Both the position numbers and the translations under genes were made by a program. Positions 13,582 through 36,956 of a stretch of 64,000 nt of DNA are shown one piece after another. Each line of letters begins with the position of its first letter. Within the stretch, counting starts at the first letter, position 1. This DNA is from Pseudomonas phage sp. 30-2, in sequence record LC727697.1. One strand, 5' to 3'. Below the pieces are notes generated by a model. The model was not told where the DNA came from. It saw only the letters and a program-made list of their open reading frames with translations, and made no database searches.

Positions 13582-15033
13582 TTAATAATCTATTTTTTTC
13601 ACAGAAAATGGATATTCTGCTTCTTTATAGAATTTTTTCCTTTTAGTTAAATGCCTTGCAGAATATTTTGCAACAGAAGTAATATCAAATACAGATACAT
13701 AGTCTTTTCCGGGTGCCTTGCGTAGACCGCGACCGATAGACTGAATTACCCTAATAAAAGACTTTCCTGGTTCTAATAAATATACATTATGTATGTATGG
13801 TATATCAATACCAGTAGATGCAACCCCAAAGGTTGCTATAATAATTTTATCTGTATCTGATGTAACTGATTTATATTCAGTTCTTCTGTCTTTACTTTTT
13901 AAATCACCTTTAACAAAAGCAGCATTGGGTATATGCTTAAGAAGTTCTTCTCCGCTCGACAGCCTATCAACTAATACTAACGTATTACCTTCTTGAGATT
14001 TTATATGTTCGGCTAGCCATTTTAAACGAGTAGGGTCTGTAGTAAGAAATTTTAATTCGGCTGCATAGTTCGGATGCGAAGTATGATAATCGTTTAATTG
14101 TAGGACTTCTATGTGCAATTCACTAAGTATTCCTGCTTCTTGCAATTCTTTTGCTTTCACAGTTTTTGTAACAGGACCTATGCATGCAATAAGGGCAGCA
14201 GCGGCATGTTCCTCTTCCGGTATGGTTCCTGTCATAGCCCATCGAATGGGAACATTAGCAAATGTAGAAGTTAAATGTTCTTTTAATGATTGACCCTTAA
14301 TAGTATGTGCTTCATCGACTACTACTGCTACTACCCCTTCAATGAATTCTTCTAATGTTAATGCATTTTCGTCTGCTTTACTTTGTTTATAAATAGCTTC
14401 AATACTTTGCCAGGTAACTATAGTGTGAGTTTTGCCTAATTCTTTTCTATCTCCGAAATAAACGCCAGTATCTAATCCGAAGTTTTTAAAATCCCGTTCT
14501 GTTTGGGTAACTAAGTCTTTAGATGGAACAATTGTTATTGTTCTTCCATACTTTTCTACTTTATGTGCTAATGCAGCAGTAACTAATGTTTTTCCAAAAC
14601 CAGTAGGCAATGTTGCTATACTCTGTGTATTAGCTAAGTAATTATTCACTGCCTCTACTTGATAATCCCGTAGAACAATATTCTGCCCTTCATATTGATG
14701 TCCTACAGGCCAAGTAATATGAGAATATGAGTTAGCATCTATTGGTTCAAAATTACACGAAAACGGTTGTCTATTATCTTCTATGGTTATATAATAACCA
14801 CTATTTTCTACAATAGGAATAAGTATATCTAAAAAATTAAGATACGAACGTCCGGCTATATCACAATATCTAATACATCCATCCCATCTACCTAACTTGT
14901 ATGCAGGTTGGTGTCTTGCATGAGGTAAAAAGAATTTTAACGAATCAGATAGTTTTCTACGAGTGTTTATATCAAGTCCAGTAAATGCAATATTTACTTC
15001 ATCTTTTATTACTAATTTGCAATCCTTTGCCAT
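13582..15033 (-). CDS. uvsW: SF2 DNA helicase UvsW
   Basis: GRWDGCIRY, RDYQVEAV, LPTGFGKT (Walker A) and VVDEAH (DEAH box) align with T4 UvsW GNWDGRIRLL / HWYQKDAV / LPTSAGKS. Confidence 0.8.
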   Translation of the reverse strand: MAKDCKLVIKDEVNIAFTGLDINTRRKLSDSLKFFLPHARHQPAYKLGRWDGCIRYCDIAGRSYLNFLDILIPIVENSGYYITIEDNRQPFSCNFEPIDANSYSHITWPVGHQYEGQNIVLRDYQVEAVNNYLANTQSIATLPTGFGKTLVTAALAHKVEKYGRTITIVPSKDLVTQTERDFKNFGLDTGVYFGDRKELGKTHTIVTWQSIEAIYKQSKADENALTLEEFIEGVVAVVVDEAHTIKGQSLKEHLTSTFANVPIRWAMTGTIPEEEHAAAALIACIGPVTKTVKAKELQEAGILSELHIEVLQLNDYHTSHPNYAAELKFLTTDPTRLKWLAEHIKSQEGNTLVLVDRLSSGEELLKHIPNAAFVKGDLKSKDRRTEYKSVTSDTDKIIIATFGVASTGIDIPYIHNVYLLEPGKSFIRVIQSIGRGLRKAPGKDYVSVFDITSVAKYSARHLTKRKKFYKEAEYPFSVKKIDY

Positions 15034-15045
15034 TACGAATCCTAT

Positions 15046-15531
15046 TTAAATTTGTGCGTCGTCTAGTCCTGCACAACGAAGTTTAACTATGTGGCCTACC
15101 ATCCAATTCTTAGAATCTAAACCCTTCATTAGCGAAAGATATTTGTTTCTTAGCAATGCAACTTCATTAACTAATATTGCCCTGTTTACTACAAGTGGAT
15201 CTCCTTCTGCATATTTCTCTGCATCCCTAGAAGAAAGTGCTTTAGGAAACTGCTGTAGATAAAATTTGAATCTGTCGCTTTTTTCTTGTTTATACTGAAT
15301 ATTAAGTAATTCTAGTACAGCTTCAATTTCTTGAAGCTGTGCAAATCTATTCTCTACTATACCCGGCAACTCTGCGCAATGTTTCTCTAACGTTTTACCC
15401 TTTAAAGACATTTCTGTAGACTTAGAAATATCTATTTCCTTTTCGAAAAAAGAAATGAAATCGGGTATCTTAGATAAATCTGCATAGACAATGTTATACC
15501 AATTGTTCATTTTCTTTTCCAGCAAGTGCAA
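15046..15531 (-). CDS. uvsY: probable recombination mediator UvsY-like protein
   Basis: Adjacent to uvsW as in T4. C-terminal GLDSKNWMVGHIVKLR resembles UvsY GALDAIKSRGFAIKHIQDMR. 161 aa vs 137 aa. Confidence 0.4.
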   Translation of the reverse strand: MHLLEKKMNNWYNIVYADLSKIPDFISFFEKEIDISKSTEMSLKGKTLEKHCAELPGIVENRFAQLQEIEAVLELLNIQYKQEKSDRFKFYLQQFPKALSSRDAEKYAEGDPLVVNRAILVNEVALLRNKYLSLMKGLDSKNWMVGHIVKLRCAGLDDAQI

Positions 15532-15829
15532 TCCTAATTACTTTTAAAAATAAATGAGCTCGTTGAGATTTTGACGGTATTCTTCGTTTTAGTCTAAATT
15601 GACTAATAGGAATATTAAATGAATCGGAACATAGTATATGTAGGTTATTAATATTTTCAGGTTGTATTACCCATATAACCGCATTCATATCTTTTGTTAC
15701 CATATCTAACAATTTGTCTAATTGTTCTATGACAGCATCTTTATTTTTGGATGTTATATTGGCTTTCAACGACGATACAGTTGATAGAAATTCGTCACTA
15801 AATTCTAAATTAGTCGTCATCTGCTTCAC
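15494..15829 (-). CDS. hypothetical protein (111 aa)
   Basis: Complete ORF. Confidence 0.3.
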   Translation of the reverse strand: MKQMTTNLEFSDEFLSTVSSLKANITSKNKDAVIEQLDKLLDMVTKDMNAVIWVIQPENINNLHILCSDSFNIPISQFRLKRRIPSKSQRAHLFLKVIRIALAGKENEQLV

Positions 15830-16010
15830 CTAAATGTGTTTTTGCTGCTATTTTAAGTTCTTTTTCAAACATTTGAATATCTACATCAAGCATTCCGTAT
15901 TCATCTAAAACTTCTATAAACGCATCCGCTGCATGAATGCGCTCAGATGACTTAATATATGGTCGCACGGCAGCCCAAATTTCATTTATTGCTTCAACAT
16001 CTGTAATCAT
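15810..16010 (-). CDS. hypothetical protein (66 aa, acidic)
   Basis: Complete small ORF overlapping its neighbours. Confidence 0.3.
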   Translation of the reverse strand: MITDVEAINEIWAAVRPYIKSSERIHAADAFIEVLDEYGMLDVDIQMFEKELKIAAKTHLGEADDD

Positions 16011-17842
16011 TTATTAACCTTATATTGCAATTTTAAATGGCCAGCATCGTATACTCGATAAAATCCATTATTTTTCATATTCTCTTCTTCTGTTAATGAT
16101 TTATCGAAATCTGATAAAATGTTTTTCAACTTGTGTTTCATAAATTTTTGCCTATTAAGCCTTTTTGAAAAATCCTCTTTACTCACATAAGTGTAATTAA
16201 AATCAGTCTCATACAGTATATCAAACCCATTGTTTACATATACATTATTTGTCGGATTCGACCATCTGAGATCAGCATATGTGTTTATAACATCTATTTT
16301 GTTATTATTAATACAATATTTCAACAACTTAGAAAATCCGCCGATCACGTGCATAGAAGATGCATATCTAACTAGTTCTGTACATTTCTTCTTTTTAAGA
16401 AAAGACATAGCACAAACTAATTCATTATCATAATATAATCCATATGCATACGAGGATGCAGAATCTTCTTGTATGTGATATTTTTTAAAGAAATTTCGTT
16501 TGTCTGCTACCGATATTTCTTTAACTATACAATTCCTTGCATAACATTTATTATTAGATTTTCCTAAAATGTGCGCTAATTTTCTCTTTACTAGTTCTTT
16601 CTTATGAATAAATTCATCTTCAAAAATTTGTATTAAACGAATACCTTTTTGTTTACATATGCTATATTTTTCTCTATGCTTTGTTACATTTCCTTCTGTT
16701 CGTGTGCTATGAAAATATAATCCGTTGTATTCTATTCCTATGTTAAGTTCGGGAATAAAAATATCAATTTCTCGCGGAAATATAATAGTACGATCATTGT
16801 CGATTACATTAAATCCCAATGAACGCACATATTCAGATATTTCTGCATGACCAGAAGAAATATTTCCCTTTGTATATTTTATACCTTCTTCTATTAACTT
16901 TTCAGTAATAGATGTTATTTCGTATTTTTCACATAAAGCAGCTAATGTATAACCGTTGTCTATTAATTTAACAACTTCTTCTTTTATATCATTCCAAATC
17001 AAATCAATTTTTTTAATCGGTTCTCGTGTTTTCCATCCGTTATCTGCCATTATTTTCCATATGGTGTATTGACATACTCCCAATTTTTCTGCTATTTGGT
17101 ATGTAGTCATACATTCATCATAATACATCCGATAAATTTCTGATTCTTTACCACTTAATATAGAATGTTTCGGTTTTGTAAAATACTGTATATTGTATTC
17201 TTTTATAACGCTTTCTACATAAGTTCTAGAAATTCCGTATTCATTTATTATATCAACAATAGATTTAATTTTTAATTCTTCTGCTAGAGTTTCTCTAGAT
17301 ATTTTATCTTGTTGATGTTTTACAGCAGGTGGCAACGAATTAGTATAATCGATTTTTAAATGTGTTAAATGATGTTTTAGTTCTTCAAAATTAAAGTTAT
17401 AATTATTTTTTATCCAACTAATTGTTCGTCTTTCGTTATATACTAAGTGTTCGAAAAAGTCTTTAGTAAAATCTTCAGGCTTTTTTGTTTTACGCTTCTT
17501 GTTAGTAGCAGTATATAGACACTTTTCGATTGGTATTCCGTAATCATTAAACACTTGTTTTAAATGAAGTTCATTAATCTTATAAGTCTTTCTTATTTCA
17601 TTAAATGATTGTTTTTTAATTACATGTAAGTCAAATAACAACTCCTTTGAAACAAGTTTTTTAAATTTCAAAATTTTTATATCAGTTTCTTGCAACGGTA
17701 GACGATTCGTTTCATCTCTTATGATGGTTTTAATGACATCATAAGAGACTCCGTATATTTGCTTTAATTCAGATACAGATTTTAAATCATCGAAGTGTAA
17801 TTTGATAATATTAATACGATCTGTTTCGCATAATTTATTCAT
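16007..17842 (-). CDS. putative homing endonuclease, Vsr/DUF559-like nuclease family (paralog A: six N-terminal HTH-like repeats)
   Basis: Nuclease core LNIGIEYNGLYFHS...KGIRLIQIFEDEF plus a shared C-terminal domain (KCYARNCIVKEI...GLYYDNELV...YADLRWS). Paralogous to 32599..34215 and to the C-terminus of 19110..20543. N-terminus has six ~35-aa HTH-like repeats. The ORF overlaps the uvsX C-fragment start by 8 nt. Confidence 0.6.
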   Translation of the reverse strand: MNKLCETDRINIIKLHFDDLKSVSELKQIYGVSYDVIKTIIRDETNRLPLQETDIKILKFKKLVSKELLFDLHVIKKQSFNEIRKTYKINELHLKQVFNDYGIPIEKCLYTATNKKRKTKKPEDFTKDFFEHLVYNERRTISWIKNNYNFNFEELKHHLTHLKIDYTNSLPPAVKHQQDKISRETLAEELKIKSIVDIINEYGISRTYVESVIKEYNIQYFTKPKHSILSGKESEIYRMYYDECMTTYQIAEKLGVCQYTIWKIMADNGWKTREPIKKIDLIWNDIKEEVVKLIDNGYTLAALCEKYEITSITEKLIEEGIKYTKGNISSGHAEISEYVRSLGFNVIDNDRTIIFPREIDIFIPELNIGIEYNGLYFHSTRTEGNVTKHREKYSICKQKGIRLIQIFEDEFIHKKELVKRKLAHILGKSNNKCYARNCIVKEISVADKRNFFKKYHIQEDSASSYAYGLYYDNELVCAMSFLKKKKCTELVRYASSMHVIGGFSKLLKYCINNNKIDVINTYADLRWSNPTNNVYVNNGFDILYETDFNYTYVSKEDFSKRLNRQKFMKHKLKNILSDFDKSLTEEENMKNNGFYRVYDAGHLKLQYKVNK

Positions 17843-19106
17843 CGAACTCTTCTAAATGACCCTCTTCCACTTCTACGACATTGCCTAGGTCTTCGTCTGT
17901 AAATTCATTCATAATTACTTTTAGTTTATCGTAATCATTCCATTCTTTCCTATAATACAGCATTTCGGTACCATCTTTGGTTATGTACTTATATCTATTG
18001 CCTTGTTTTACAAGTTTACCTGTTTTTTCAAACAAGTCAAATAGACCCGATATTGGACTCATACCTGTATCATATGGAATATTTACTTTTACTGTCTCAA
18101 ACGGCTTTGCATATCGAGATTTCACAACTTTACATACTGCACGAATGCCAGCTACTTCAGAAATTTTATTACCTGCTTCGTCTTCTTTTAATTTTAACTT
18201 TTGCATTGCCACTACAATTGACGCCGCATAGACTGCGCCGCTGCCACCCGAAATTACAGCGTCAGGCTGAAATAAATCTTGAGATGCATATGTATGGTTA
18301 GTACAAACAAGGCCTATGTCTAAGTTGCCGAACATATTTGTACAGTTAGAAATCAATGCTTTTAATTGTTTTGCTTTCCTGCCCATATCTCCTTTCATAT
18401 CACCATTTTGAAATTGTGCAGTTTCCGTTGGTGTCAATAACATTCCGAGCGAGTCAATAACAAAAAGCACCTTTGGTCGATCATTGTTAGGTAGTTCGGC
18501 ATAATTAGTCTTGTAATCTTTAACAAAATCACTAATAATTTTTGCTACATCATCTATCATCGATACAGAGATGCGTAACATTTTTTCCGGTCCGGTGTCT
18601 ACACCTAGTGCATGTAGCCAAGATTCGTCGAGTGCATTTTCTGAATCAAGTAATACAACAAAAATTCCCTTTTCTTGTGCATCTTTTACAATGTTTCCTG
18701 ATACTATATACGATTTGCCACTATTGTGAGAAGAGAATCCATCACCATAGTAACGATGATTTTCGTGGAGTATTTCGAAATCGAAACATTCTTCGATGCC
18801 ACTTTCAGTTACAGAACTAATTGTTGAGACACCGTTTACAGTAAGCACTTGTTGGCCTTCGTACAAGTCTTTTGCAAGTGTCCAAAAAGTTTCCGATCCG
18901 TCTACCACTTCGATCATATGGTTTACTGCACATCTAGTAACTAACCCATCCTGCGTTTCTACCGTCACCATACTAAGAGGGCCTTTATCGAACCAAGATC
19001 CCAGTTTTTGCCAGCCATCTGGTGTGTCTAACTCAATTTCGTATTCATTACTACTGTAGAGAGACTTCAGTTCACTAACTGTTACTTCCTTTTCGATGTA
19101 TTCCAT
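17835..19106 (-). CDS. uvsX: UvsX recombinase C-terminal fragment: intein C-fragment (128 aa) + C-extein (RecA core, 295 aa)
   Basis: First 128 aa end in intein block F/G (ECFDFEILHENHRYYGDGFSSHN), followed by +1 Ser (SGKSYIV). The remainder aligns with T4 UvsX (VCTNHTYASQDLF...GGSGAVYAASIVV vs INHTYETQEMF...GGTGPMYSADTVF). Confidence 0.8.
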   Translation of the reverse strand: MEYIEKEVTVSELKSLYSSNEYEIELDTPDGWQKLGSWFDKGPLSMVTVETQDGLVTRCAVNHMIEVVDGSETFWTLAKDLYEGQQVLTVNGVSTISSVTESGIEECFDFEILHENHRYYGDGFSSHNSGKSYIVSGNIVKDAQEKGIFVVLLDSENALDESWLHALGVDTGPEKMLRISVSMIDDVAKIISDFVKDYKTNYAELPNNDRPKVLFVIDSLGMLLTPTETAQFQNGDMKGDMGRKAKQLKALISNCTNMFGNLDIGLVCTNHTYASQDLFQPDAVISGGSGAVYAASIVVAMQKLKLKEDEAGNKISEVAGIRAVCKVVKSRYAKPFETVKVNIPYDTGMSPISGLFDLFEKTGKLVKQGNRYKYITKDGTEMLYYRKEWNDYDKLKVIMNEFTDEDLGNVVEVEEGHLEEFDE

Positions 19107-28333: not shown

Positions 28334-28936
28334 TTATCTTTTATTTCTATAATCATTAGTACCTATAACAGCATTGTTATTAGGAACTACAACTTCTTTA
28401 TTGTTTATTTTATCTAGTTTTTGCGCCGGAATTAGATTGTTAGTTACATAACTATCTTCTTTTGCAGGAGCTGCCGCTAGTGCTTCTTTAACTGATTCGT
28501 CGCCATATGGTGCTTCAGTTTTCCATATTTCTTCCGAACCTAATACTGGTTTATAATTATCTTTATATTCTTTACTTTGTCTGTACACGAATTCTTTTGC
28601 GTCTTCTAATCTAGGATCTTCAGAAGTAAATACCAGAACATTGCTTTCTTTTATACAGAGTGCTTTAGATATATAATTTCTTAATAAATCCGGTGTAGCT
28701 GGATATACCATCTCTATTTCTGCTATGAATACTTTAGAACAAGGTATATTAGGAAAATCTAACGGATTTAATTGATAAGGAGTTTCTTTAAAATTAGAAA
28801 ACGAAAGTATATCATATTTTACTAAACTAGATTCTAATACAGATTTTTGTTCAGAATTTATTTCGTCTGTAGCTATTTTAATTACAAACGAATATTTGCG
28901 TTTTGACGCATCGTAATAATCTCTGAAAGATTTCAT
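28334..28936 (-). CDS. hypothetical protein (200 aa)
   Basis: Complete ORF. Confidence 0.35.
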   Translation of the reverse strand: MKSFRDYYDASKRKYSFVIKIATDEINSEQKSVLESSLVKYDILSFSNFKETPYQLNPLDFPNIPCSKVFIAEIEMVYPATPDLLRNYISKALCIKESNVLVFTSEDPRLEDAKEFVYRQSKEYKDNYKPVLGSEEIWKTEAPYGDESVKEALAAAPAKEDSYVTNNLIPAQKLDKINNKEVVVPNNNAVIGTNDYRNKR

Positions 28937-28960
28937 TTATATCTTCCTTTATAGTTTATT

Positions 28961-29467
28961 TTATTTATCTGCAGAGTTATCATTATCTTTATTTAAAAGA
29001 AGACCTATTAGCTCATTTCTATCAAAATATACACCATTAGATCCGGCAGGGGCATCAGTGGACGTTTTTTTATGAGTCATTTCCCAATCCAATCTTGCTT
29101 TTTTAATTTGTAACTCTACCATTTTTAATTTTCTATAATTTTTTGCTTCCTTGGCGTCCTGGGCAGTTTTAAGCATATTATGTGCCACTTCTAACACTTT
29201 ACCTACCTGGGCATCATGTATGTTTTGACTTATATCCCACAAATCGCGGTATGCATCCATTGCAGTTTTTGCAATTTCATCCATATCTCTGTCATGACTA
29301 TCTAATTGAGTTACACCAACTAATGCTGCATCAATTTTATCCGATTGAGAATTTATGTCTACTATTTGGCCAGAAACATCCTCTTCGTTAGCAGTTTCTA
29401 TAATTTCTGCTGGCGCTTCTTCGTCAAACGAAGCAAAATCAAATACTTCTTCTAATCTTTTAGTCAT
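28961..29467 (-). CDS. hypothetical protein (168 aa, acidic N-terminus)
   Basis: Complete ORF. Confidence 0.35.
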   Translation of the reverse strand: MTKRLEEVFDFASFDEEAPAEIIETANEEDVSGQIVDINSQSDKIDAALVGVTQLDSHDRDMDEIAKTAMDAYRDLWDISQNIHDAQVGKVLEVAHNMLKTAQDAKEAKNYRKLKMVELQIKKARLDWEMTHKKTSTDAPAGSNGVYFDRNELIGLLLNKDNDNSADK

Positions 29468-29468
29468 G

Positions 29469-29897
29469 TTATTTAGGATTCCTATAAATATGGTCTTCGT
29501 TAATTACTCTAAATCTTATACCCCGTGCAGAGCAAAACTTGGCGGCCGCTTGCCATTTTGCTGCATTCATTGCTAACCGATATTTATCTTGTTTAGTTTT
29601 AGCATGTTCTAAAAATGTTTCTTTTCTCGGTTTTATTTCGACTATTTCGGTGTGTTTGTTGCCCTTACTATCAACGTATACCATTAAAAAATCTGGCACA
29701 TATAACGATTGTTTGTTTGTAACTGGATTAAAATAAGGAATAGAAATGGGTTCGCTGGCCCATTCAATTACAGCCATATTTTCGTCAACTGTCTGCATAA
29801 ATTTATATTCCCATGCAGATCTATAGTATGGTAATTTTTTTCCTATATATTTTCCAGGATTCTTCGGAATATACGTTCCTTGCTTGTAACTACCCAT
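29469..29897 (-). CDS. PD-(D/E)xK-fold nuclease-like protein (possible head-completion nuclease, gp4-like)
   Basis: YVPDF...EIVEIKP matches the PD-(D/E)xK arrangement. 142 aa, within the packaging/structural block. Confidence 0.4.
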   Translation of the reverse strand: MGSYKQGTYIPKNPGKYIGKKLPYYRSAWEYKFMQTVDENMAVIEWASEPISIPYFNPVTNKQSLYVPDFLMVYVDSKGNKHTEIVEIKPRKETFLEHAKTKQDKYRLAMNAAKWQAAAKFCSARGIRFRVINEDHIYRNPK

Positions 29898-30352
29898 TAT
29901 AATTTGACGTTCCTTCCTCTGAATTTCCCAGAATTATCGTTTATTATTAATAGATTTTGCTTTTCGCCGGCAGGTCTTAAAAAATTTAATACAGTATATG
30001 TGTCATTTCCTAACATTAATTGTCCCGTACTTGCCACTTCTTCTGCTAATGTCATCGGTGGTTTATTTAGTAACTTGGCTGCATCTAACATCATCAATGC
30101 TAGGGTTTCTGCGTTAGGTAAAGAAGTATGTTTACTTACAAAGAATGATCGTAGAGCAAAAAACATATTCGAATTAACGGCGCCGACTGAAGAATTTCCG
30201 TAATTGTCTAGAATAAGACTAGTAGCATCCAAAGCATTATCAAAGCCAGATCCATTTTCAAATGTGTTAACTAAAGACGAACCCGTTTGTATTACTTTCT
30301 TAGAAGCTCCTCTACGCTTCAACATGTCTATACTAAATCTATCAAGTGCCAT
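29897..30352 (-). CDS. hypothetical structural-module protein (151 aa)
   Basis: Complete ORF, translationally coupled to its neighbours. Confidence 0.35.
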   Translation of the reverse strand: MALDRFSIDMLKRRGASKKVIQTGSSLVNTFENGSGFDNALDATSLILDNYGNSSVGAVNSNMFFALRSFFVSKHTSLPNAETLALMMLDAAKLLNKPPMTLAEEVASTGQLMLGNDTYTVLNFLRPAGEKQNLLIINDNSGKFRGRNVKL

Positions 30353-31860
30353 TATAATCCAACACTCCTGTTAGATACGTTTGTATTTCTAGATCCCCTA
30401 GGATTATCTATAATTTTTCCTGCGCCATTTAAAACACCAGTTATAGCAGTATTTACACCAGTTTCAAATGTTCTTCGTATAGTTCCAGTAGTTTCTGATT
30501 TTGCTTGATCTAATATTTTTCTCATAGAACCTTTCGGATCTACCGGGAATTCTACTTCTCCTGTAAATATACTTTCACCTACTGCCCTGGCTGCATTTTC
30601 AGGAAAAGTAGTAACATAGTCTGTTACATTTCGCTCAATATTTCCTAATACGCTATTAGCAGCGCTTCCTAATACTGCGCCTACTCCTATATTATCTAAC
30701 ACACCATTTACACCAGTTGCATCTAAAACTGTAGATACACCAGACCGAATTCCGCCGAATATATCCCCCGTAATATCACCCAATACATTACCTAATCCAG
30801 ACGAAGATCTGCCGAAACCGCCCTCAGTACTGTCGTTTCTTACCCTAACACTAACTGGCGGACGGGCAGGTTGATAATCTAATTCTAAATTATTAGCATT
30901 ATCATAAAATTCAAGTTCAGTTTCAGCCAATGGCCTAACAAAGTTATCATACACTACATCTTCGTATTCAAATGTAAATGTTAATTCCATTAAATCGCTA
31001 GAATTGTCATATGCTAATGCATCATGTCTAAAATCTGTTATTCTGGGATTTACTAATCTTGCTCTAGAATATGATTGTCCGTGAACCTGATATATATCAA
31101 TAGAGTCAAACAAATATCTACTATATTTTCCTATAAACGAAGTTGTATTAAACACTTGAGTATCTAACCTAAATCCAAAATCTCGTTTAAAAACACCTTC
31201 TTTAGAGATAATATCATTATAAAACTCAGATACGTTTAACTCGCCCCTTCTTAATGTATTTCTAATGGGATCAAAATTACTTATAGAATCTGATGTTTTC
31301 TTGGCGTAAACACCATCATTAAAATAATATTCATAATACATTTCCCAAAAACGTAATGTTTTTCCATCTACTACATCGTGTAACACCATTGTAATAGGCT
31401 GGAATTTTATCTTTGTTTGAGAAATACGCCATTTATTATATTGATTTAATTTTTCTGTATCTATTTGCATAGATGGCATATCGATACGTTTTATTAGAGG
31501 AACTATCATATCTTGTTCATCTCTATTTAAATAAGTATCAACAAACGATTTTACCGGATCTATAGTATTATAGTTTATTTTTACAAGATATTGAAACTTA
31601 GACCTAGGATAGTTCTGTTGTATATACGAACCCCTAAGACCAAAATTATATGTTGCATGTCTACCATCTCTTAGATATGCGCCATGCCCGTCGCCAATTA
31701 AACCGCCTAAAAATTTCTTAGCAGACCGGGTAGCAACAGAAGACAAAATATTTCCTGCTTCTCCCACTGTTGCCCCAAATATATCACCAGCAGCGCCGGC
31801 TATTGTACCGAATATATCATCAAATGCCATATATAAATCCAATAAAAAGAATAACTGCAA
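30352..31860 (-). CDS. putative baseplate/tail structural protein with glycine-zipper repeats (502 aa)
   Basis: N- and C-terminal repeats DIFGTIAGAAGDIFGATVGEAGNIL and GNVLGDITGDIFGGIRSG...GVLDNIGVGAVLGSAANSVLGNI. Located next to the tail tube gene. Confidence 0.35.
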   Translation of the reverse strand: MQLFFLLDLYMAFDDIFGTIAGAAGDIFGATVGEAGNILSSVATRSAKKFLGGLIGDGHGAYLRDGRHATYNFGLRGSYIQQNYPRSKFQYLVKINYNTIDPVKSFVDTYLNRDEQDMIVPLIKRIDMPSMQIDTEKLNQYNKWRISQTKIKFQPITMVLHDVVDGKTLRFWEMYYEYYFNDGVYAKKTSDSISNFDPIRNTLRRGELNVSEFYNDIISKEGVFKRDFGFRLDTQVFNTTSFIGKYSRYLFDSIDIYQVHGQSYSRARLVNPRITDFRHDALAYDNSSDLMELTFTFEYEDVVYDNFVRPLAETELEFYDNANNLELDYQPARPPVSVRVRNDSTEGGFGRSSSGLGNVLGDITGDIFGGIRSGVSTVLDATGVNGVLDNIGVGAVLGSAANSVLGNIERNVTDYVTTFPENAARAVGESIFTGEVEFPVDPKGSMRKILDQAKSETTGTIRRTFETGVNTAITGVLNGAGKIIDNPRGSRNTNVSNRSVGL

Positions 31861-31889
31861 GCTAAGTAAAATAGCTTGCAGATTTCTTA

Positions 31890-32567
31890 TTAGTTTACAC
31901 GAGCACCAGGTGCACCGCGTAATCCGGCATCGTCGTCAGTAAACGGATCGCCGCCGAGTGCAACTTCGTTGCCGCCTGCATGATGAGTATAGTTATCTGC
32001 ACGAACAGTAAGGGTTATTAAGGTAAGTTCAGAGCTATCATATGCACGAGAACCATAGTTTACATCAAGTAAAAAACAACCTTCTGCATCCCAGTATTCT
32101 AATGGTGCAGTATTGTTGTTTCCGTCTAGAGATTCTATTCTCATAGTAAATTTATAGTTTCTACCAGCTACTGGGCTAGATTGTTCAAAATGGTTCATTT
32201 GTTTCTGCAATTGTTTACCAACTACATTAACAACTGAGTTTTGAATATCGTCACGCAATACAATTTCGATAGTTTGCCATTCGTGTTTCCCCATAGCATA
32301 TGCTACAGAGTTATACGAATGAACAGCAGTCGACGCATGGTTTATTTTCGGTCTTTCGACAGAAACTACGCTCTGGGTTAACTGGCGAGAATTAGATCCA
32401 TCGCCAAAACCATCAAAACTCACGCGAAACTTGTACTGGAGCTTGGGTTGCAAAATACCGCGTTCTGAACCTGCCGAACTTGGTACCCCAAATTTGTCTA
32501 ATGTTGCCATACATTCTCCTATTAATGTCTCGTTATTACGATAAACATATTTATCAGTAACTAACAA
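31890..32567 (-). CDS. 19: tail tube protein (T4 gp19-like)
   Basis: Position next to the sheath gene. C-terminal region resembles gp19 (LEYWDAEG... vs QLDWDSNN...LALDYWE). Confidence 0.55.
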   Translation of the reverse strand: MLVTDKYVYRNNETLIGECMATLDKFGVPSSAGSERGILQPKLQYKFRVSFDGFGDGSNSRQLTQSVVSVERPKINHASTAVHSYNSVAYAMGKHEWQTIEIVLRDDIQNSVVNVVGKQLQKQMNHFEQSSPVAGRNYKFTMRIESLDGNNNTAPLEYWDAEGCFLLDVNYGSRAYDSSELTLITLTVRADNYTHHAGGNEVALGGDPFTDDDAGLRGAPGARVN

Positions 32568-32590
32568 TTTTTCATTATAGGATACAAATA

Positions 32591-32611
32591 AAGGGGCATT
32601 ATGCCCCTTTA
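32591..32611. terminator. palindromic hairpin/terminator
   Basis: AAAGGGGCAT-T-ATGCCCCTTT overlapping the stop codon of the 538-aa endonuclease gene. Confidence 0.45.
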
Positions 32612-34215
32612 TTTGTCCAAACCCATTTAGTAGATCCCGAATCCCATATTCTATTCCATCCCAAACTATCCATATATTCTTTTTCTGTTAGTAAAGTTTC
32701 GGGCAACTTATCTTTTCTAAAATTGTATCTATGATATCTTTTAAGATCATTATCTTTTATATACCAGTAATTAGGGAGTGTCTGTTTATCTAATTTAAAT
32801 CCTAGCTGTTCATATAAATTACCGTCAGACCAGCGAGAATCTGCATACGAAATAACACTAGATGGATTATAGTTATTTATATAGTAAGCAAATAATTTTC
32901 CCGCGGCGCCGGGGATAGATGTATTATGTTTTACACTAAAACGATTTATCTGACAGCTCGATGTTTTATTAGTAATATCTTTATTTAAAAATGTCATTAC
33001 AGAAACTAGTTCATTGTTATAATACAACCCCAATCTTACATTTGCTCTACCTTTACCTTGTAAATGTGTTTTTTCTACAAAATCATTTGCAACTTTAGAA
33101 TTTATTTCTTTAACAGTACATTTCCTTGCATATATTTTGTGTTCTGTTTTTCCTAATATAGCTCTTATTCTACTCTTTACTATATCTTGCTTTAAGTCCC
33201 ACTCATCTTCAAATATTTGAATTAATCTAATTCCTTTATCTCTAAAAAATATTTTCTTTTCGTAATCTTTTGTTTTACTGTACCCAGAATACTCTAACAC
33301 ATCCTCACTATGCCAGTATAATCCGTTAAATTCAAATCCAATATTTAATTCTTTACAAAATATATCTATTTCTTTATTGTTTATACGTGCAGAATTTATA
33401 CATGAAATACCTAAACTTGTTATAAAATATTCTAATTCTTTTTCTTTTTCAGATCTATTACTATTTCTAGGATAACACACAGGACATAATTCTATTTTAA
33501 ATTTACTAGCTCTAAAATATTGTTTTGTAAAAGAACATTCATTATTACATATATTACACCTTAACACTAAGCTGTTTTCATTTATGTCATTTAATAATGT
33601 TAGATTTGCAAGAGATATATTACTTTCTATTTGTTTATTAGATTCAGCTATTTTAGAAGCCCTATAATTGTTTAATGTTTGTATAGCTATTTCTTTATGT
33701 GATTTGGTTAACTTATATCCTTTTCGTATTTGCACTAACCCCAACGTTTTCTTTGTACTATATGTATCTTTTGCTTTAGCACTTCTCTGTTTTACTTCTT
33801 CTTTATTTTCTGCAGCATACTTCTTCACACTATCAGAAATTTTTTTATTTATTTCTACAGTTCTGACATATGATTTCCTAGTTAGTATCCCTTCTTTGTA
33901 CTTTAGTTCTCTCTGTTCTGCAGATTTCACGTACATAGTAGTATCGTGTAACTCTATGCCTTTATTCCACGGAATAGTTCCGGATTTTTTATTAGACATA
34001 GATTCTTTCATGCTATCTGACCATTTATTTCCATAATTAGGATTATTAATGCCAGATGACTGTTCTGACCGCTTTGATCTATATTCATCTGATACAAGAG
34101 AATATTTTCCATAAAGATCTTTGTATTCTGCAGTAGTGATGTTATGTGTTTTTAGATGTGTACTTGTAATCATACTAGGAAATGATTTATTACAAATTTT
34201 ACATACAATAGACAT
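32599..34215 (-). CDS. putative homing endonuclease, Vsr/DUF559-like nuclease family (paralog B: N-terminal C2H2-like zinc finger), inserted between the tube and sheath genes
   Basis: CKICNKSFPSMITSTHLKTH is a C2H2 finger. A second CxxC...CxxC ribbon follows. Nuclease core LNIGFEFNGLYWHSE...KGIRLIQIFEDEW and C-terminal domain KIYARKCTVKEI...GLYYNNELV...YADSRWS are paralogous to 16007..17842. Confidence 0.6.
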   Translation of the reverse strand: MSIVCKICNKSFPSMITSTHLKTHNITTAEYKDLYGKYSLVSDEYRSKRSEQSSGINNPNYGNKWSDSMKESMSNKKSGTIPWNKGIELHDTTMYVKSAEQRELKYKEGILTRKSYVRTVEINKKISDSVKKYAAENKEEVKQRSAKAKDTYSTKKTLGLVQIRKGYKLTKSHKEIAIQTLNNYRASKIAESNKQIESNISLANLTLLNDINENSLVLRCNICNNECSFTKQYFRASKFKIELCPVCYPRNSNRSEKEKELEYFITSLGISCINSARINNKEIDIFCKELNIGFEFNGLYWHSEDVLEYSGYSKTKDYEKKIFFRDKGIRLIQIFEDEWDLKQDIVKSRIRAILGKTEHKIYARKCTVKEINSKVANDFVEKTHLQGKGRANVRLGLYYNNELVSVMTFLNKDITNKTSSCQINRFSVKHNTSIPGAAGKLFAYYINNYNPSSVISYADSRWSDGNLYEQLGFKLDKQTLPNYWYIKDNDLKRYHRYNFRKDKLPETLLTEKEYMDSLGWNRIWDSGSTKWVWTNKGA

Positions 34216-34272
34216 AAAAGCAATCCTTAATTTTAAACAATAGTATACTATAGATATAATTTATAGTCAAAT

Positions 34273-34295
34273 AAAAAGGCACTAAGTGCCTTTTT
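34273..34295. terminator. terminator hairpin after the sheath gene
   Basis: AAAAAGGCACT-AAG-TGCCTTTTT. Confidence 0.55.
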
Positions 34296-34316
34296 ATTTT
34301 GCATTACTAATTTATG

Positions 34317-36956
34317 TTAAGATCCAGTATTTTGCAAACGAATCGGAACATAAATAAATTCAACTGCACGGGTGGGCACTATTGCAACGTCAACCCACAA
34401 TTCGTTTCTATCTATACGATCCGGAGTATTATTAGAATCAGAACAGTCTACAACGAAATCAGTGATACCGCGTAATGTTACTATTTCGCTTAAGAAAGCC
34501 TCTACTGCTACCTGTACTGCTTGACGAGTACGTGAATCGTTTGGCTCGAATACAAACGGTTTTAGCAACAAATCTAATTGATATCTAACATAGTTTACCA
34601 ATCTTGCTACATTAACTCTATCCAATGACGAAGTAACTGGATTTCTAGATTTTTGACCCCATACCACTATACCTCTATTAGGCACTTGCGATATTGGGTT
34701 AACATTATTAGTATACAGAGTATCCCGCTGCCCTTCATTTAACGAAACTGCAACGAATTCACCTTCGCTGTTTATATAACCTACCGAAGTTGCGTTAGAC
34801 ACTATACCGCGTTGATATCCTGCTGGAGCGAACCACGGATATGCAACCTGGTCATTATACGCAATAGTACGAAGTAACATATGACTAGGAGGAACAACTA
34901 CATTATTACCATTTAGATCTGTACTTAGCCCGGACGGATAATATACACCTAAATACGGATCAGCAGTAACTAATCCATCTGAACCGTTTTCTGTTGCTAA
35001 TTTAGAATTAGAAGACCATTCTTGTAAATTAGTACCAGTTGCACTCAAAGTAAATGGCGAATCGCCTATAACAAATGCAGTTTGTTTTCTATCAACGTTT
35101 AATGCTACTAACTCGTCTATTAATTCAGGATAGCCAGGCGCAGCAATTAGGTTATAAAACACGTTTTCAGAACGAATATCTTCATTAGCCTGTATTGTGC
35201 TAGCAATAGAACGAACGACTACTTGTTTAACTGCTTCACCACCAGTGTATAAAGAACCATCCGATCTTAAACCACTAACAGATACCCATCTATCTCCTAT
35301 AACGTTACCTTCAAAGGTATAATTATTGTTCCATTGTTTAACGTTACGTGTGGAATAGCGAGTGTTAAATAGCAAGATTCCTTGCGGATATGCAAGTGCG
35401 TCTGGAGCGTCTGCATCTAATGCTCCGGAATTTACAGGTCTTGCATCAGCAAATATTACACCGTTAGGTGTTGTTTGATCAGTATTATCTACTAATCTCC
35501 ACTGGTTATTTACCCTACGATATATAACTGGATAATTGCCTGCAGACGAAGTGCTTACCCATACATCGCCGTCAGCTACGTTAGTAGTAGGTTCAGCACT
35601 TTGTACAAATAAACTGCCAGCTAAATCAGTCCATGCTCCTACGCCATCATTAACTAGAATGTCAACTTTATAATCTGTGCTGTACCACAATGTACCGTTA
35701 TCTAATTGACCGGACGGTTGTTTTACAGCAGAACTATATTCTAGTGGAACCCAATTAGAATATATGCCGGCACTAAACATAGTAGATGATGTAACTATTA
35801 TATCTTTTCCACTATCGTTAACTAACGCTACCATTCTAGAGGCAGTATTGTAATTAACTGAAATATCAGTAACACCGTTAGAAACTAAAGCTTGTCCTAA
35901 CGATTGAGCAAATGCCTCTACGCTAGAACCAGATGCGTTAACTGTCACTGATGTTCCGTTATAGCGTCCTAATACTAATGTATCGCTATAAGGACCAGTT
36001 GCTGCTAAGGTTACAGAAACAGCAGTGAAAGTGTTACCGTTGTGTATTTTTACCTTATGTTGTAGTTCAGTTACTGCAGGATTAACTGCACTAGATAATG
36101 TTCCTTTTGCATTATATTGCACAAACACCGAGCCCTGGCGTAGTGTAGTTCCGAAACCGTCGGTAGCATCATCGCTTGTTTTGTACAAAGGAGTAGATAC
36201 AGATACAAAACTTCCTACATTTGCATCGAATCTAGACAATGCATATGAAGTTTCCCTTAGGTTTACCCATAGATTCCCTACAGCACCTACTACAGGATAT
36301 ACCTTATTATATACAACTGTATTATCGTTAGCAGTAATTAAAACCCAGGCGCCGGATATATTGCGTCTATATATTGCATTTTCTACGTTAGGAGCAGCTT
36401 GTCCTACTGACATTGCATATTTGTAACTAGACGGAACATTTGCTGGGCGACCAGCTGCGTCAAATTCAGTTGCATAGAATACATTTGCTTTTACCCAGTC
36501 AGTGCCGTTAGACTCATACAACCCCGACACAACTTTTGTAGGGTTTAACCAATAGGTGTTGTCTGCAGGATTAGCAGTGGGCTCAGTATCAGACGGTTCT
36601 AACTGAGATGTGTCTACATCTGCCCGCACAACATATGCTCTATTAGATATTCCTAAATACGAATGTGCTGCTAACAATCCATATTCATTTAGTTCATATC
36701 CGTGTAATGCAGTTCCGCCGACTGTTTTAAAAGTCGGGACACCAAACGTTTGTAGTAGTTCTCTTTGAGAACTAATTAGCCATAGTCTACCTGCATTTTG
36801 TCTAGTGGTTCCCGGTGCAATTCCAGTACCGGCACTATCAGTTTTATCTTGAGCAGTTGCTATGATTATAAGCGGTACAGTTCCCGGACCAGACGATGCA
36901 TAAAAAGATTCGTCTGTTATAGTTACACTTACACCCGGAGAAATGAGAGTTGCCAT
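34317..36956 (-). CDS. 18: tail sheath protein (T4 gp18-like)
   Basis: N-terminus MATLISPGVSVTITDES vs gp18 MTLLSPGIELKETTVQS. 879 aa. Confidence 0.8.
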   Translation of the reverse strand: MATLISPGVSVTITDESFYASSGPGTVPLIIIATAQDKTDSAGTGIAPGTTRQNAGRLWLISSQRELLQTFGVPTFKTVGGTALHGYELNEYGLLAAHSYLGISNRAYVVRADVDTSQLEPSDTEPTANPADNTYWLNPTKVVSGLYESNGTDWVKANVFYATEFDAAGRPANVPSSYKYAMSVGQAAPNVENAIYRRNISGAWVLITANDNTVVYNKVYPVVGAVGNLWVNLRETSYALSRFDANVGSFVSVSTPLYKTSDDATDGFGTTLRQGSVFVQYNAKGTLSSAVNPAVTELQHKVKIHNGNTFTAVSVTLAATGPYSDTLVLGRYNGTSVTVNASGSSVEAFAQSLGQALVSNGVTDISVNYNTASRMVALVNDSGKDIIVTSSTMFSAGIYSNWVPLEYSSAVKQPSGQLDNGTLWYSTDYKVDILVNDGVGAWTDLAGSLFVQSAEPTTNVADGDVWVSTSSAGNYPVIYRRVNNQWRLVDNTDQTTPNGVIFADARPVNSGALDADAPDALAYPQGILLFNTRYSTRNVKQWNNNYTFEGNVIGDRWVSVSGLRSDGSLYTGGEAVKQVVVRSIASTIQANEDIRSENVFYNLIAAPGYPELIDELVALNVDRKQTAFVIGDSPFTLSATGTNLQEWSSNSKLATENGSDGLVTADPYLGVYYPSGLSTDLNGNNVVVPPSHMLLRTIAYNDQVAYPWFAPAGYQRGIVSNATSVGYINSEGEFVAVSLNEGQRDTLYTNNVNPISQVPNRGIVVWGQKSRNPVTSSLDRVNVARLVNYVRYQLDLLLKPFVFEPNDSRTRQAVQVAVEAFLSEIVTLRGITDFVVDCSDSNNTPDRIDRNELWVDVAIVPTRAVEFIYVPIRLQNTGS

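Follow-up and report, generated by a model that had tools for sequence, protein, structure and literature searches.

Three putative homing endonuclease genes with Vsr-like nuclease cores, one of them between the halves of a fractured uvsX gene, in a PA5oct-type Pseudomonas phage

Three open reading frames (ORF1, ORF2 and ORF3) with a nuclease-like signature lie in a 64,000-nucleotide stretch of DNA from Pseudomonas phage sp. 30-2 (record LC727697.1), referred to below as the window, and raise the question of whether they are mobile endonuclease genes, of which family, and how they came to reside in one genome. A first-pass annotation, made from the sequence, had proposed a locally expanded family of Vsr/DUF559-like homing endonucleases with different DNA-binding modules. 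The three reading frames, of 611, 477 and 538 amino acids (aa), respectively, were found where proposed, all on the minus strand (Table 1), along with every motif quoted for them; no additional copies of these nuclease genes were found in the window. Two regions of the window, 15000-22000 and 31800-36000, have counterparts, with an identity of 98.7-99.6%, in ten jumbo phages that infect Pseudomonas aeruginosa and form part of the PA5oct group (Wroclawvirus, Arenbergviridae; the genomes named are PA5oct, MIJ3, Callisto, Paride, Cassandra, Deifobo, Ettore, PAC2 and 30-3). We consider it quite probable that the three are homing endonuclease genes (HEGs) of the free-standing kind, that they belong to the Vsr-like EDxHD superfamily, and that they entered the PA5oct-type genome independently of one another.

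The core motifs read IGIEYNGLYFHS and KGIRLIQIFEDEF in ORF1, VIEFYGNFWHADS and DFIVVWEKDF in ORF2, IGFEFNGLYWHSE and KGIRLIQIFEDEW in ORF3; the C-terminal motifs K[CI]YAR.C.VKEI, GLYY[DN]NELV and YAD.RWS are likewise all present. By BLASTP, the C-terminal 290 aa of ORF1 match those of ORF3 with 40% identity (E 2e-50), in agreement with the domain of about 200 aa said to be shared by the two larger paralogs, and ORF2 has no significant similarity to either (E 0.16-0.25). Profiles were then compared by hhalign, one for the Hef-like (ORF3-type) core, built from 62 sequences, the other for the nuclease of the ORF2 family, from an alignment of 22 collected relatives. They match over 103 columns (probability 97.3%, E 2.4e-11), and the alignment pairs D391, E402, H409, D432 and E453 of ORF2 with the active-site-type residues of ORF3, D284, E295, H302 and D317 plus E338. 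Because of this match, the shared signature is to be ascribed to homology and not to chance. Conservation of the catalytic residues, which had been named beforehand as a test, is seen in the family alignments of all three ORFs: among the ORF2 relatives D391, E402, G405 and H409 are invariant and W408, D432, R435, W452 and E453 nearly so, while D360, E371, H378, H389 and E410 of ORF1 are conserved in 117-119 of 119 relatives.

The Hef-like cores fall into two subtypes, told apart by the fourth of the conserved nuclease positions. This is an Asp in the ORF3 type (aa 317, approximately 33265-33267), in which the loop following the WHS motif is longer, and a His in the ORF1 type (aa 389, approximately 16676-16678), in which that loop is shorter. 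The Asp is found in 59 of 62 ORF3 relatives and the His in 117 of 119 ORF1 relatives, i.e. the residue is about 95-98% conserved inside each subtype. ORF1 was considered as a catalytically degenerate copy, produced by an Asp-to-His change, and this was rejected, because His is the rule throughout the ORF1 subfamily.

As for family membership, the profile of the ORF1/ORF3 family matches the catalytic domain of I-Bth0305I (PDB 3r3p, E 7.6e-5), and 12 of its 58 members match Pfam MTES_1575 and one matches Vsr. Ten of the 22 ORF2 relatives match MTES_1575 and four match DUF559. ORF2 itself matched nothing in Pfam, PHROG, NCBIfam or PADLOC scans, and so falls outside the Hef-like phrog_3339 group, which includes ORF1 and ORF3. 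By sequence comparison, all three cores are thus best classified as Vsr/DUF559-superfamily nuclease domains, with a predicted restriction-endonuclease fold. The type of core had therefore been correctly recognized, but the novelty implied for the family was not confirmed: it is the known EDxHD/Hef family (PMC3239194), and T-even relatives of T4 carry it between nrdA and nrdB.

The C-terminal domain shared by ORF1 and ORF3 had been described as one of unknown function. It is of a recognized kind, because of its GNAT fold, closest to that of Mom, of matches to Pfam Mom and of conserved Mom residues, and had in fact already been reported, as a nuclease-Mom fusion, for PA5oct (Iyer et al. 2021, PMC7824862). 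An AlphaFold2 model of ORF3 aa 245-538 (pLDDT 92, pTM 0.89) has phage Mu Mom (PDB 8bv8, E 1e-7) as its top Foldseek match, followed by dozens of GNAT acetyltransferases; being dominated by GNAT matches, this search covers the GNAT part of the model and not the nuclease part separately. No Mom match is listed in the Pfam scan of full-length ORF1 and ORF3. The C-terminal half of ORF3 scores 22.5 bits (E 1e-4) against Pfam Mom (PF25680), whose gathering threshold, 27.1 bits, is exceeded by the homologues P0026 (31.9 bits) and P0078 (28.0 bits). With a limit of E <= 0.01, this Pfam family picks up 17 of 58 members, the best at E 3e-8. On the model and the sequence comparisons, we describe the domain as Mom-like GNAT, its identity to Mom being only 13-22%.

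Mom is a GNAT-fold enzyme, which transfers glycine from Gly-tRNA to the N6 of DNA adenine; the residues essential to the Mu enzyme are R111, S124, D149 and R151, those described as important are H58, Y59 and Y159, and the S124A change is catalytically dead (PMC13219725). Mom also contains an HTH-like insertion that it cannot do without. Residues equivalent to R111, D149, R151 and Y159, along with a His near H58, are found in 62 of 62 and 115-119 of 119 members of the two family sets, as mapped by a weak local hhalign alignment to Mu Mom (E 0.013, 148 columns) and by looking at the motifs, the His being placed by eye. The equivalent of Ser124 is Ser in ORF1 and Gly in ORF3 (aa 439, approximately 32899-32901); Ser occupies this position in 55 of 62 and 91 of 119 members. 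It is the least conserved Mom active-site position in the family, with Gly in about 5-16% of members. The domain may either modify adenine in DNA, possibly as self-protection, or serve DNA binding.

The N-termini of the three proteins differ, as had been proposed, ORF1 carrying helix-turn-helix (HTH) modules and ORF3 a C2H2 finger and a CxxC ribbon. Of the six HTH repeats attributed to ORF1, only three or four are backed by Pfam (aa 191-218, 229-264 and 288-310); three more N-terminal units resemble HTH repeats by eye, and these first three escaped a small hidden Markov model made from the last three. In ORF3, the finger, of the ROS/MucR type in homologues, is accompanied by NUMOD3 and a conserved CxxC...CxxC ribbon; within its family, NUMOD3 is found in 32 of 58 members and ROS_MUCR in 20. 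The N-terminal part of the ORF1/ORF3-family profile matches the DNA-binding domain of I-TevI (PDB 1i3j, E 6.2e-5). The N-terminal region of ORF2 is all-helical, with repeated W-x2-KG-[YF]-[SD] motifs, and we infer that it binds DNA. DUF7487 and ROS/MucR fingers precede both GNAT-bearing Hef-like nucleases and GNAT-less nucleases of the ORF2 type; since the same modules occur in both lineages, DNA-binding modules have been exchanged between them.

Relatives of ORF1 share just the C-terminal 45% of the protein, joined to other N-termini (DUF7487, DUF4379 plus DUF723, ROS_MUCR or NUMOD3). Metagenomes contain relatives of ORF3 that match over its full length with 47-49% identity, and more than 3400 of the candidates examined are relatives at E <= 1e-3. 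For ORF2, 1143 relatives at E <= 1e-3, 42 of which at E <= 1e-30, were found among 1.84 billion representative proteins. By the residue at their fourth conserved nuclease position, ORF1 and ORF3 represent two subfamilies, and ORF2 is a third, more Vsr-like lineage, which has no GNAT domain. The local expansion first suggested is not supported. Duplication within the genome was rejected, and the genes were more probably acquired independently, because the identity between ORF1 and ORF3 is no higher than 40%, because the two are of different subfamilies and because each has closer relatives outside this genome.

The insertion sites initially named were all found, ORF1 lying in the uvsX-uvsY gap, ORF2 in uvsX and ORF3 in the sheath-tube gap; ORF2, however, is not inside the uvsX intein, as had been stated, but stands as a gene of its own, flanked by the two halves of a split intein, which breaks uvsX in its Walker A loop. 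The N-terminal uvsX fragment consists of an N-extein (aa 1-64, 20650-20841), ending in ...MFAGESG, and of a 17-aa N-intein, CLPETAKVKIRLSKKQS (20599-20649), followed by a stop codon. The C-terminal fragment starts with a C-intein (aa 1-128, 18723-19106), ending in ...GDGFSSHN (NHRYYGDGFSSHN), and continues into a C-extein (17835-18722), which begins with SGKSYIVSGN. The exteins were aligned with an unbroken counterpart, the RecA-like protein of Klebsiella phage Muenster (SGQSGSGKSFIASGN); they meet exactly in its Walker A loop, the N-fragment stopping at the G of the loop and the C-fragment starting at SGKS, and the junction GESG/C...HN/SGKS matches the intact GQSGSGKS.

The same gene order, gp32, uvsX-N, ORF2 homologue, uvsX-C, small ORFs and uvsY, is found in three metagenomic loci, L007, L009 and L011, belonging to lineages with 41-59% identity in uvsX. 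All four loci keep Cys1, the block B His, blocks F/G, the terminal Asn and the +1 Ser, as well as the motifs C1, ...CA.NH... and NHRY[YW]GDGFSSHN/S; the usual block B Thr is not at its canonical -3 position. The CLPE(T/Y)..V.IR N-intein also recurs in the metagenomic loci, the lengths over the four loci being 17, 18, 15 and 13 residues. Because a free-standing Vsr-like gene sits between the split-intein halves, the uvsX locus counts as a "fractured gene" as Dassa et al. 2009 used the term.

The split intein would rebuild the recombinase by trans-splicing, and the predicted tryptic peptide across the spliced junction is VTMFAGESGSGK. GenBank flags the uvsX C-fragment (17835-19106) and the gp32-like single-stranded DNA-binding protein (20948-21934) as found with electrospray ionization tandem mass spectrometry in the PA5oct proteome, the flagged products being gp274 and gp277; since the C-fragment was detected, existing data can be searched for this junction peptide. 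In a limited literature search, no mention of the uvsX split intein was found in the PA5oct or MIJ3 papers: inteins and homing endonucleases both go unmentioned in the PA5oct omics paper, and the split intein described for MIJ3 is another one, located in PolB with an HNH gene, and is not in the window. For these cultured phages, a uvsX gene fractured in this way, with a Vsr-like gene and an ultra-short N-intein, appears to be undescribed.

The spacer between uvsX-N and ORF2 contains an RNA hairpin (Table 1), with the GGAG Shine-Dalgarno sequence of ORF2 in its 3' arm and GATAAATA in its loop. Similar hairpins, over the Shine-Dalgarno sequence or the AUG, occur in the metagenomic loci (at approximately L007:3947-3995, L009:3647-3710 and L011:3938-4005; z -6.0, -3.7 and -2.65, respectively), and their loops contain (T/G/C)ATAAATA-like motifs. 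By burying the ribosome-binding site, the hairpin probably limits or delays ORF2 translation on read-through uvsX transcripts. The TATAAATA-like loop motif recalls T4 late promoters located inside hairpins 5' of intron endonuclease genes. Translation of these T4 genes is restricted to transcripts starting inside the hairpin; by analogy, translation of ORF2 would be restricted in the same way.

Signals of a different kind surround ORF3. Since it is bracketed by a strong terminator-like hairpin plus a promoter on one side, and by a second terminator on the other (Table 1), ORF3 can be read as a self-contained expression cassette between the sheath and tube genes; its promoter fits the TTGAC/TATAATA type reported for PA5oct (PMC7318152). 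As to ORF1, its start codon overlaps the stop codon of uvsX-C by 8 nucleotides.

Distant phages show what the sites look like without these genes. In Klebsiella phage Muenster the syntenic module contains gp32, an uninterrupted RecA-like gene, one hypothetical gene and uvsY, and in Pectobacterium phage CBB the tail tube gene directly follows the tail sheath gene. No Hef-like gene is found between uvsX and uvsY in L007, L009 and L011. The GC content is 0.273 in ORF1, against 0.34-0.38 in adjoining genes, and 0.285 in ORF3, against 0.40-0.41 in the sheath and tube genes; values as low as these are found in only 6.6% of 1.7-kb segments. By tblastn, the nuclease plus Mom module is present in five copies per PA5oct-type genome and at 1031 places in 419 phage records, with up to 12 copies per Campylobacter phage genome. 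In Tequatrovirus vB_Eco_F26 the module, with 92% of the query covered, lies between nrdA and nrdB. Insertion in conserved modules, low GC, multiple copies and the ORF3 cassette are typical of free-standing HEGs, and together with the varied DNA-binding modules and the element-free sites in distant phages they agree with the initial picture of mobile free-standing endonucleases. In L009 the uvsX-uvsY gap, which is the ORF1 site in PA5oct, contains a 234-aa ORF (L009:6401-7105), with no Pfam match on record, which may be a different mobile gene at that site.

Under the homing reading, cleavage, repair and splicing would proceed as follows. The C-terminal Vsr-fold domain of ORF2 (D391, E402, H409, D432, E453) would cut the element-free uvsX allele of a co-infecting phage, and recombinational repair would copy the ORF2 gene and the intein halves into the cut allele; the 17-aa N-intein and the 128-aa C-intein would then associate and trans-splice, rebuilding GESG-SGKS and restoring UvsX function. 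In ORF1 and ORF3, the N-terminal module would read a specific DNA sequence and the core would cut the matching empty site in related phages, repair by recombination copying the gene across. Several observations weigh against this reading. The element-free sites are those of distant phages: absence from relatives, which had been suggested as a check, is seen at that distance, but all ten PA5oct-like genomes carry all three genes, at an identity of at least 98.7%, and because of this there is no presence/absence polymorphism in the genus, which speaks against current mobility. The ORF2 relatives remain with the split uvsX intein even between lineages that share no more than 41-59% identity in uvsX, an association as compatible with long vertical co-inheritance as with repeated homing. 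In ORF3, the place of the essential Ser124 of Mom is taken by Gly, and Iyer et al. 2021 (PMC7824862) take the same proteins as modification-restriction fusions.

According to that interpretation, ORF1 and ORF3 would be single-chain weapons, whose Mom-like domain hypermodifies adenines of the phage's own DNA and whose nuclease degrades unmodified host or superinfecting DNA. We judge this unlikely as an account of the genes, with an estimate that overlaps the one for homing, the two not being mutually exclusive. The Mom fold is indeed the top structural match of the ORF3 model, the equivalents of Mom H58, R111, D149, R151 and Y159 are invariant or nearly so in some 180 members, which argues for a working active site, and every copy has been kept in all ten PA5oct-like genomes. 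Yet five diverged copies with different N-terminal readers would be unexpected for genome-wide protection, and insertions between or next to essential conserved genes, low GC and up to 12 copies in the small Campylobacter phages are HEG-like features. Moreover, the nearest relation of the core is an enzyme for which homing is proven, I-Bth0305I, the nrdA-nrdB gap of a T4-like phage, a classic mobE/Hef slot, is filled by the same module, ORF3 lacks the Ser essential in Mom, and no PADLOC defence model matches. If adenine is modified by the Mom-like domain, the homing and restriction-modification readings merge: an active GNAT domain would hypermodify adenine at or near its own target, and the cassette would cut the naive allele and immunize its carrier. 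Such a hybrid, which we also hold to be improbable, would leave PA5oct, with its five cassettes, with site-specific N6-aminoacyl or carbamoylmethyl adenines.

Fixation and near-identity in the ten PA5oct-like genomes would also suit decayed or domesticated HEG remnants, now immobile, acting as neutral passengers or as DNA-binding or regulatory proteins. The translational coupling of ORF1 to uvsX, the Gly of ORF3 at the Mom Ser124 position and the stable tie of ORF2 to the split intein across diverged lineages point in the same direction. Decay, however, is usually first visible as frameshifts or lost catalytic residues, while here the three reading frames are full-length and the catalytic-type nuclease positions are intact in all of them, the His of ORF1 being normal for its relatives (117 of 119); we therefore regard this explanation as somewhat less likely still. 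For ORF2 alone, a role as a Vsr-type very-short-patch nickase in phage T:G mismatch repair might be suggested by its retained FWH motif, and by two homologues named very-short-patch repair proteins in their sources. It is a very improbable role for a protein with a 350-aa helical N-terminal extension, absent from Vsr, which matches I-Bth0305I almost as well as Vsr, whose type lies exactly between split-intein halves in four independent loci, and which has an invariant extra Glu, E402, a mark of the homing lineage as opposed to Vsr (PMC2677866). Free-standing homing endonucleases remain the reading that we prefer for the three genes.

With respect to known systems, the locus is largely ordinary and as a discovery adds little, EDxHD/Hef nucleases, fractured genes, atypically split inteins and the nuclease-Mom fusion in PA5oct being all in the literature. 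The EDxHD family was first predicted from metagenomic fractured genes (Dassa 2009, PMC2677866); its characterized prototype is I-Bth0305I, an active homing endonuclease (Taylor 2011, PMC3239194; PDB 3r3p), and the Hef-type homing endonucleases of bacteriophages belong to it (PMC3239194). Like this prototype, the proteins described here have N-terminal NUMOD- or HTH-type modules followed by a Vsr-fold nuclease with conserved acidic and His residues, and are located in a phage recombinase gene (recA/uvsX) and other genes of DNA metabolism. I-Bth0305I (30.9 kDa, PMC3239194), in contrast, is encoded by a group I intron and ends with the nuclease, while ORF1 and ORF3 add a Mom-like GNAT domain of about 180 aa, the ORF1 subfamily has His for Asp at the fourth conserved position, and ORF2 is intein-associated, with a far longer helical N-terminus. 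ORF1 and ORF3 resemble other Hef-like enzymes in annotation, in their phrog_3339 matches (E around 1e-95) and in belonging to a module that is multi-copy in many phages, but differ in N-terminal DNA-binding modules and insertion sites. No Hef enzyme other than that of phage U5, reportedly studied by Sandegren et al. in 2005, is known to have been tested. The C-terminal domain has the GNAT fold and Mu Mom as its best structural match; it is fused to a nuclease, whereas Mom stands alone under Com control.

The fractured genes of Dassa 2009 share with the present locus the endonuclease type and the succession of a first host-gene half with N-intein, a hairpin-preceded Vsr-like HEG, and a C-intein with the second half, here uvsX-N and uvsX-C. 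The host gene differs, however, uvsX not being among the eight enzyme types listed there, where it is only a neighbour (PMC2677866). In addition, the split is atypical, coming directly after the first 11-17 residues or so and not at the canonical endonuclease-insertion site, and the locus is found in cultured phages with a tractable host instead of marine metagenomes.

Table 1. Features of the window discussed in the text
Feature	Position	Strand	Remarks
ORF1, Hef-like homing endonuclease, 611 aa	16007..17842	-	phrog_3339 'homing endonuclease' E 4e-95
ORF1, HTH array, N-terminal	aa 1-325, 16868-17842	-	Pfam HTH_28, Sigma70_r4, HTH_7
ORF1, EDxHD/Vsr-like nuclease core	aa 326-430, 16553-16867	-	weak MTES_1575 match; conserved catalytic positions
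ORF1, Mom-like GNAT domain	aa 431-611, 16010-16552	-	
uvsX C-terminal fragment, 423 aa	17835..19106	-	Pfam RecA E 2e-10; phrog_97 UvsX-like
ORF2, free-standing Vsr-like (EDxHD-type) endonuclease gene, 477 aa	19110..20543	-	between split-intein halves
ORF2, all-helical N-terminal region	aa 1-350, 19494-20543	-	
ORF2, nuclease domain	aa 351-477, 19113-19493	-	
RNA hairpin, uvsX-N/ORF2 spacer	20547..20586	-	minimum free energy -22.8 kcal/mol, z -4.2, 0/200 shuffles as stable
uvsX N-terminal fragment, 81 aa	20596..20841	-	phrog_97 UvsX-like E 3e-13
Terminator-like hairpin over ORF3 stop codon, before tail tube gene	32590..32609	-	6-bp stem plus T-rich tail, consensus scan
ORF3, Hef-like homing endonuclease, 538 aa	32599..34215	-	phrog_3339 E 4e-98
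ORF3, Mom-like GNAT domain	aa 356-538, 32602-33150	-	
ORF3, EDxHD nuclease core	aa 251-355, 33151-33465	-	
ORF3, C2H2 finger, NUMOD3 and CxxC..CxxC ribbon	aa 1-250, 33466-34215	-	
Sigma-70-type promoter of ORF3, TTGACT-N17-TATACT	34242-34270	-	10/12 consensus match
Terminator-like hairpin after sheath gene	34269-34299	-	-16.1 kcal/mol, z -6.1

These results bear on the annotation of PA5oct-type genomes. In GenBank records of this type, ORF1 and ORF3 are labelled "Hef-like homing endonuclease" or "homing endonuclease", the former being the annotation of ORF1 in PA5oct and PAC2. ORF2 is a "hypothetical protein", a label to be corrected to Vsr-like endonuclease gene, and the two pieces of uvsX beside it appear as separate coding sequences, "UvsX-like recombinase" or "RecA-like protein", although they make up a single recombinase gene, into which a split intein and a Vsr-like endonuclease gene have come. 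The same ORF1/ORF3-type proteins stand under two annotation traditions in conflict, that of the "homing endonuclease" and that of the "momylating restriction-modification enzyme".

A fractured gene with a 17-aa N-intein in cultured phages of P. aeruginosa PAO1 makes homing and trans-splicing genetically accessible, and short N-inteins are sought for protein semisynthesis. One VidaL intein is said to be found in a uvsX gene as well. The uvsX inteins resemble VidaL and PolB16 in being split right after the first beta-strands, in combining Cys1 with a Ser/Cys-type +1 residue and in the length of the N-intein. Natural short N-inteins include VidaL, 16 aa, PolB16 OarG, 15 aa, and AceL-TerL, 25 aa (PMC13014065); the N-fragments of the uvsX family are 13-18 aa long, and one of them could be the shortest N-intein in nature that is still able to splice. 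The L011 N-intein, CLPETAKVKIRIK, with its 13 aa, would, if active, be below the shortest natural ones cited (15-16 aa, PMC13014065).

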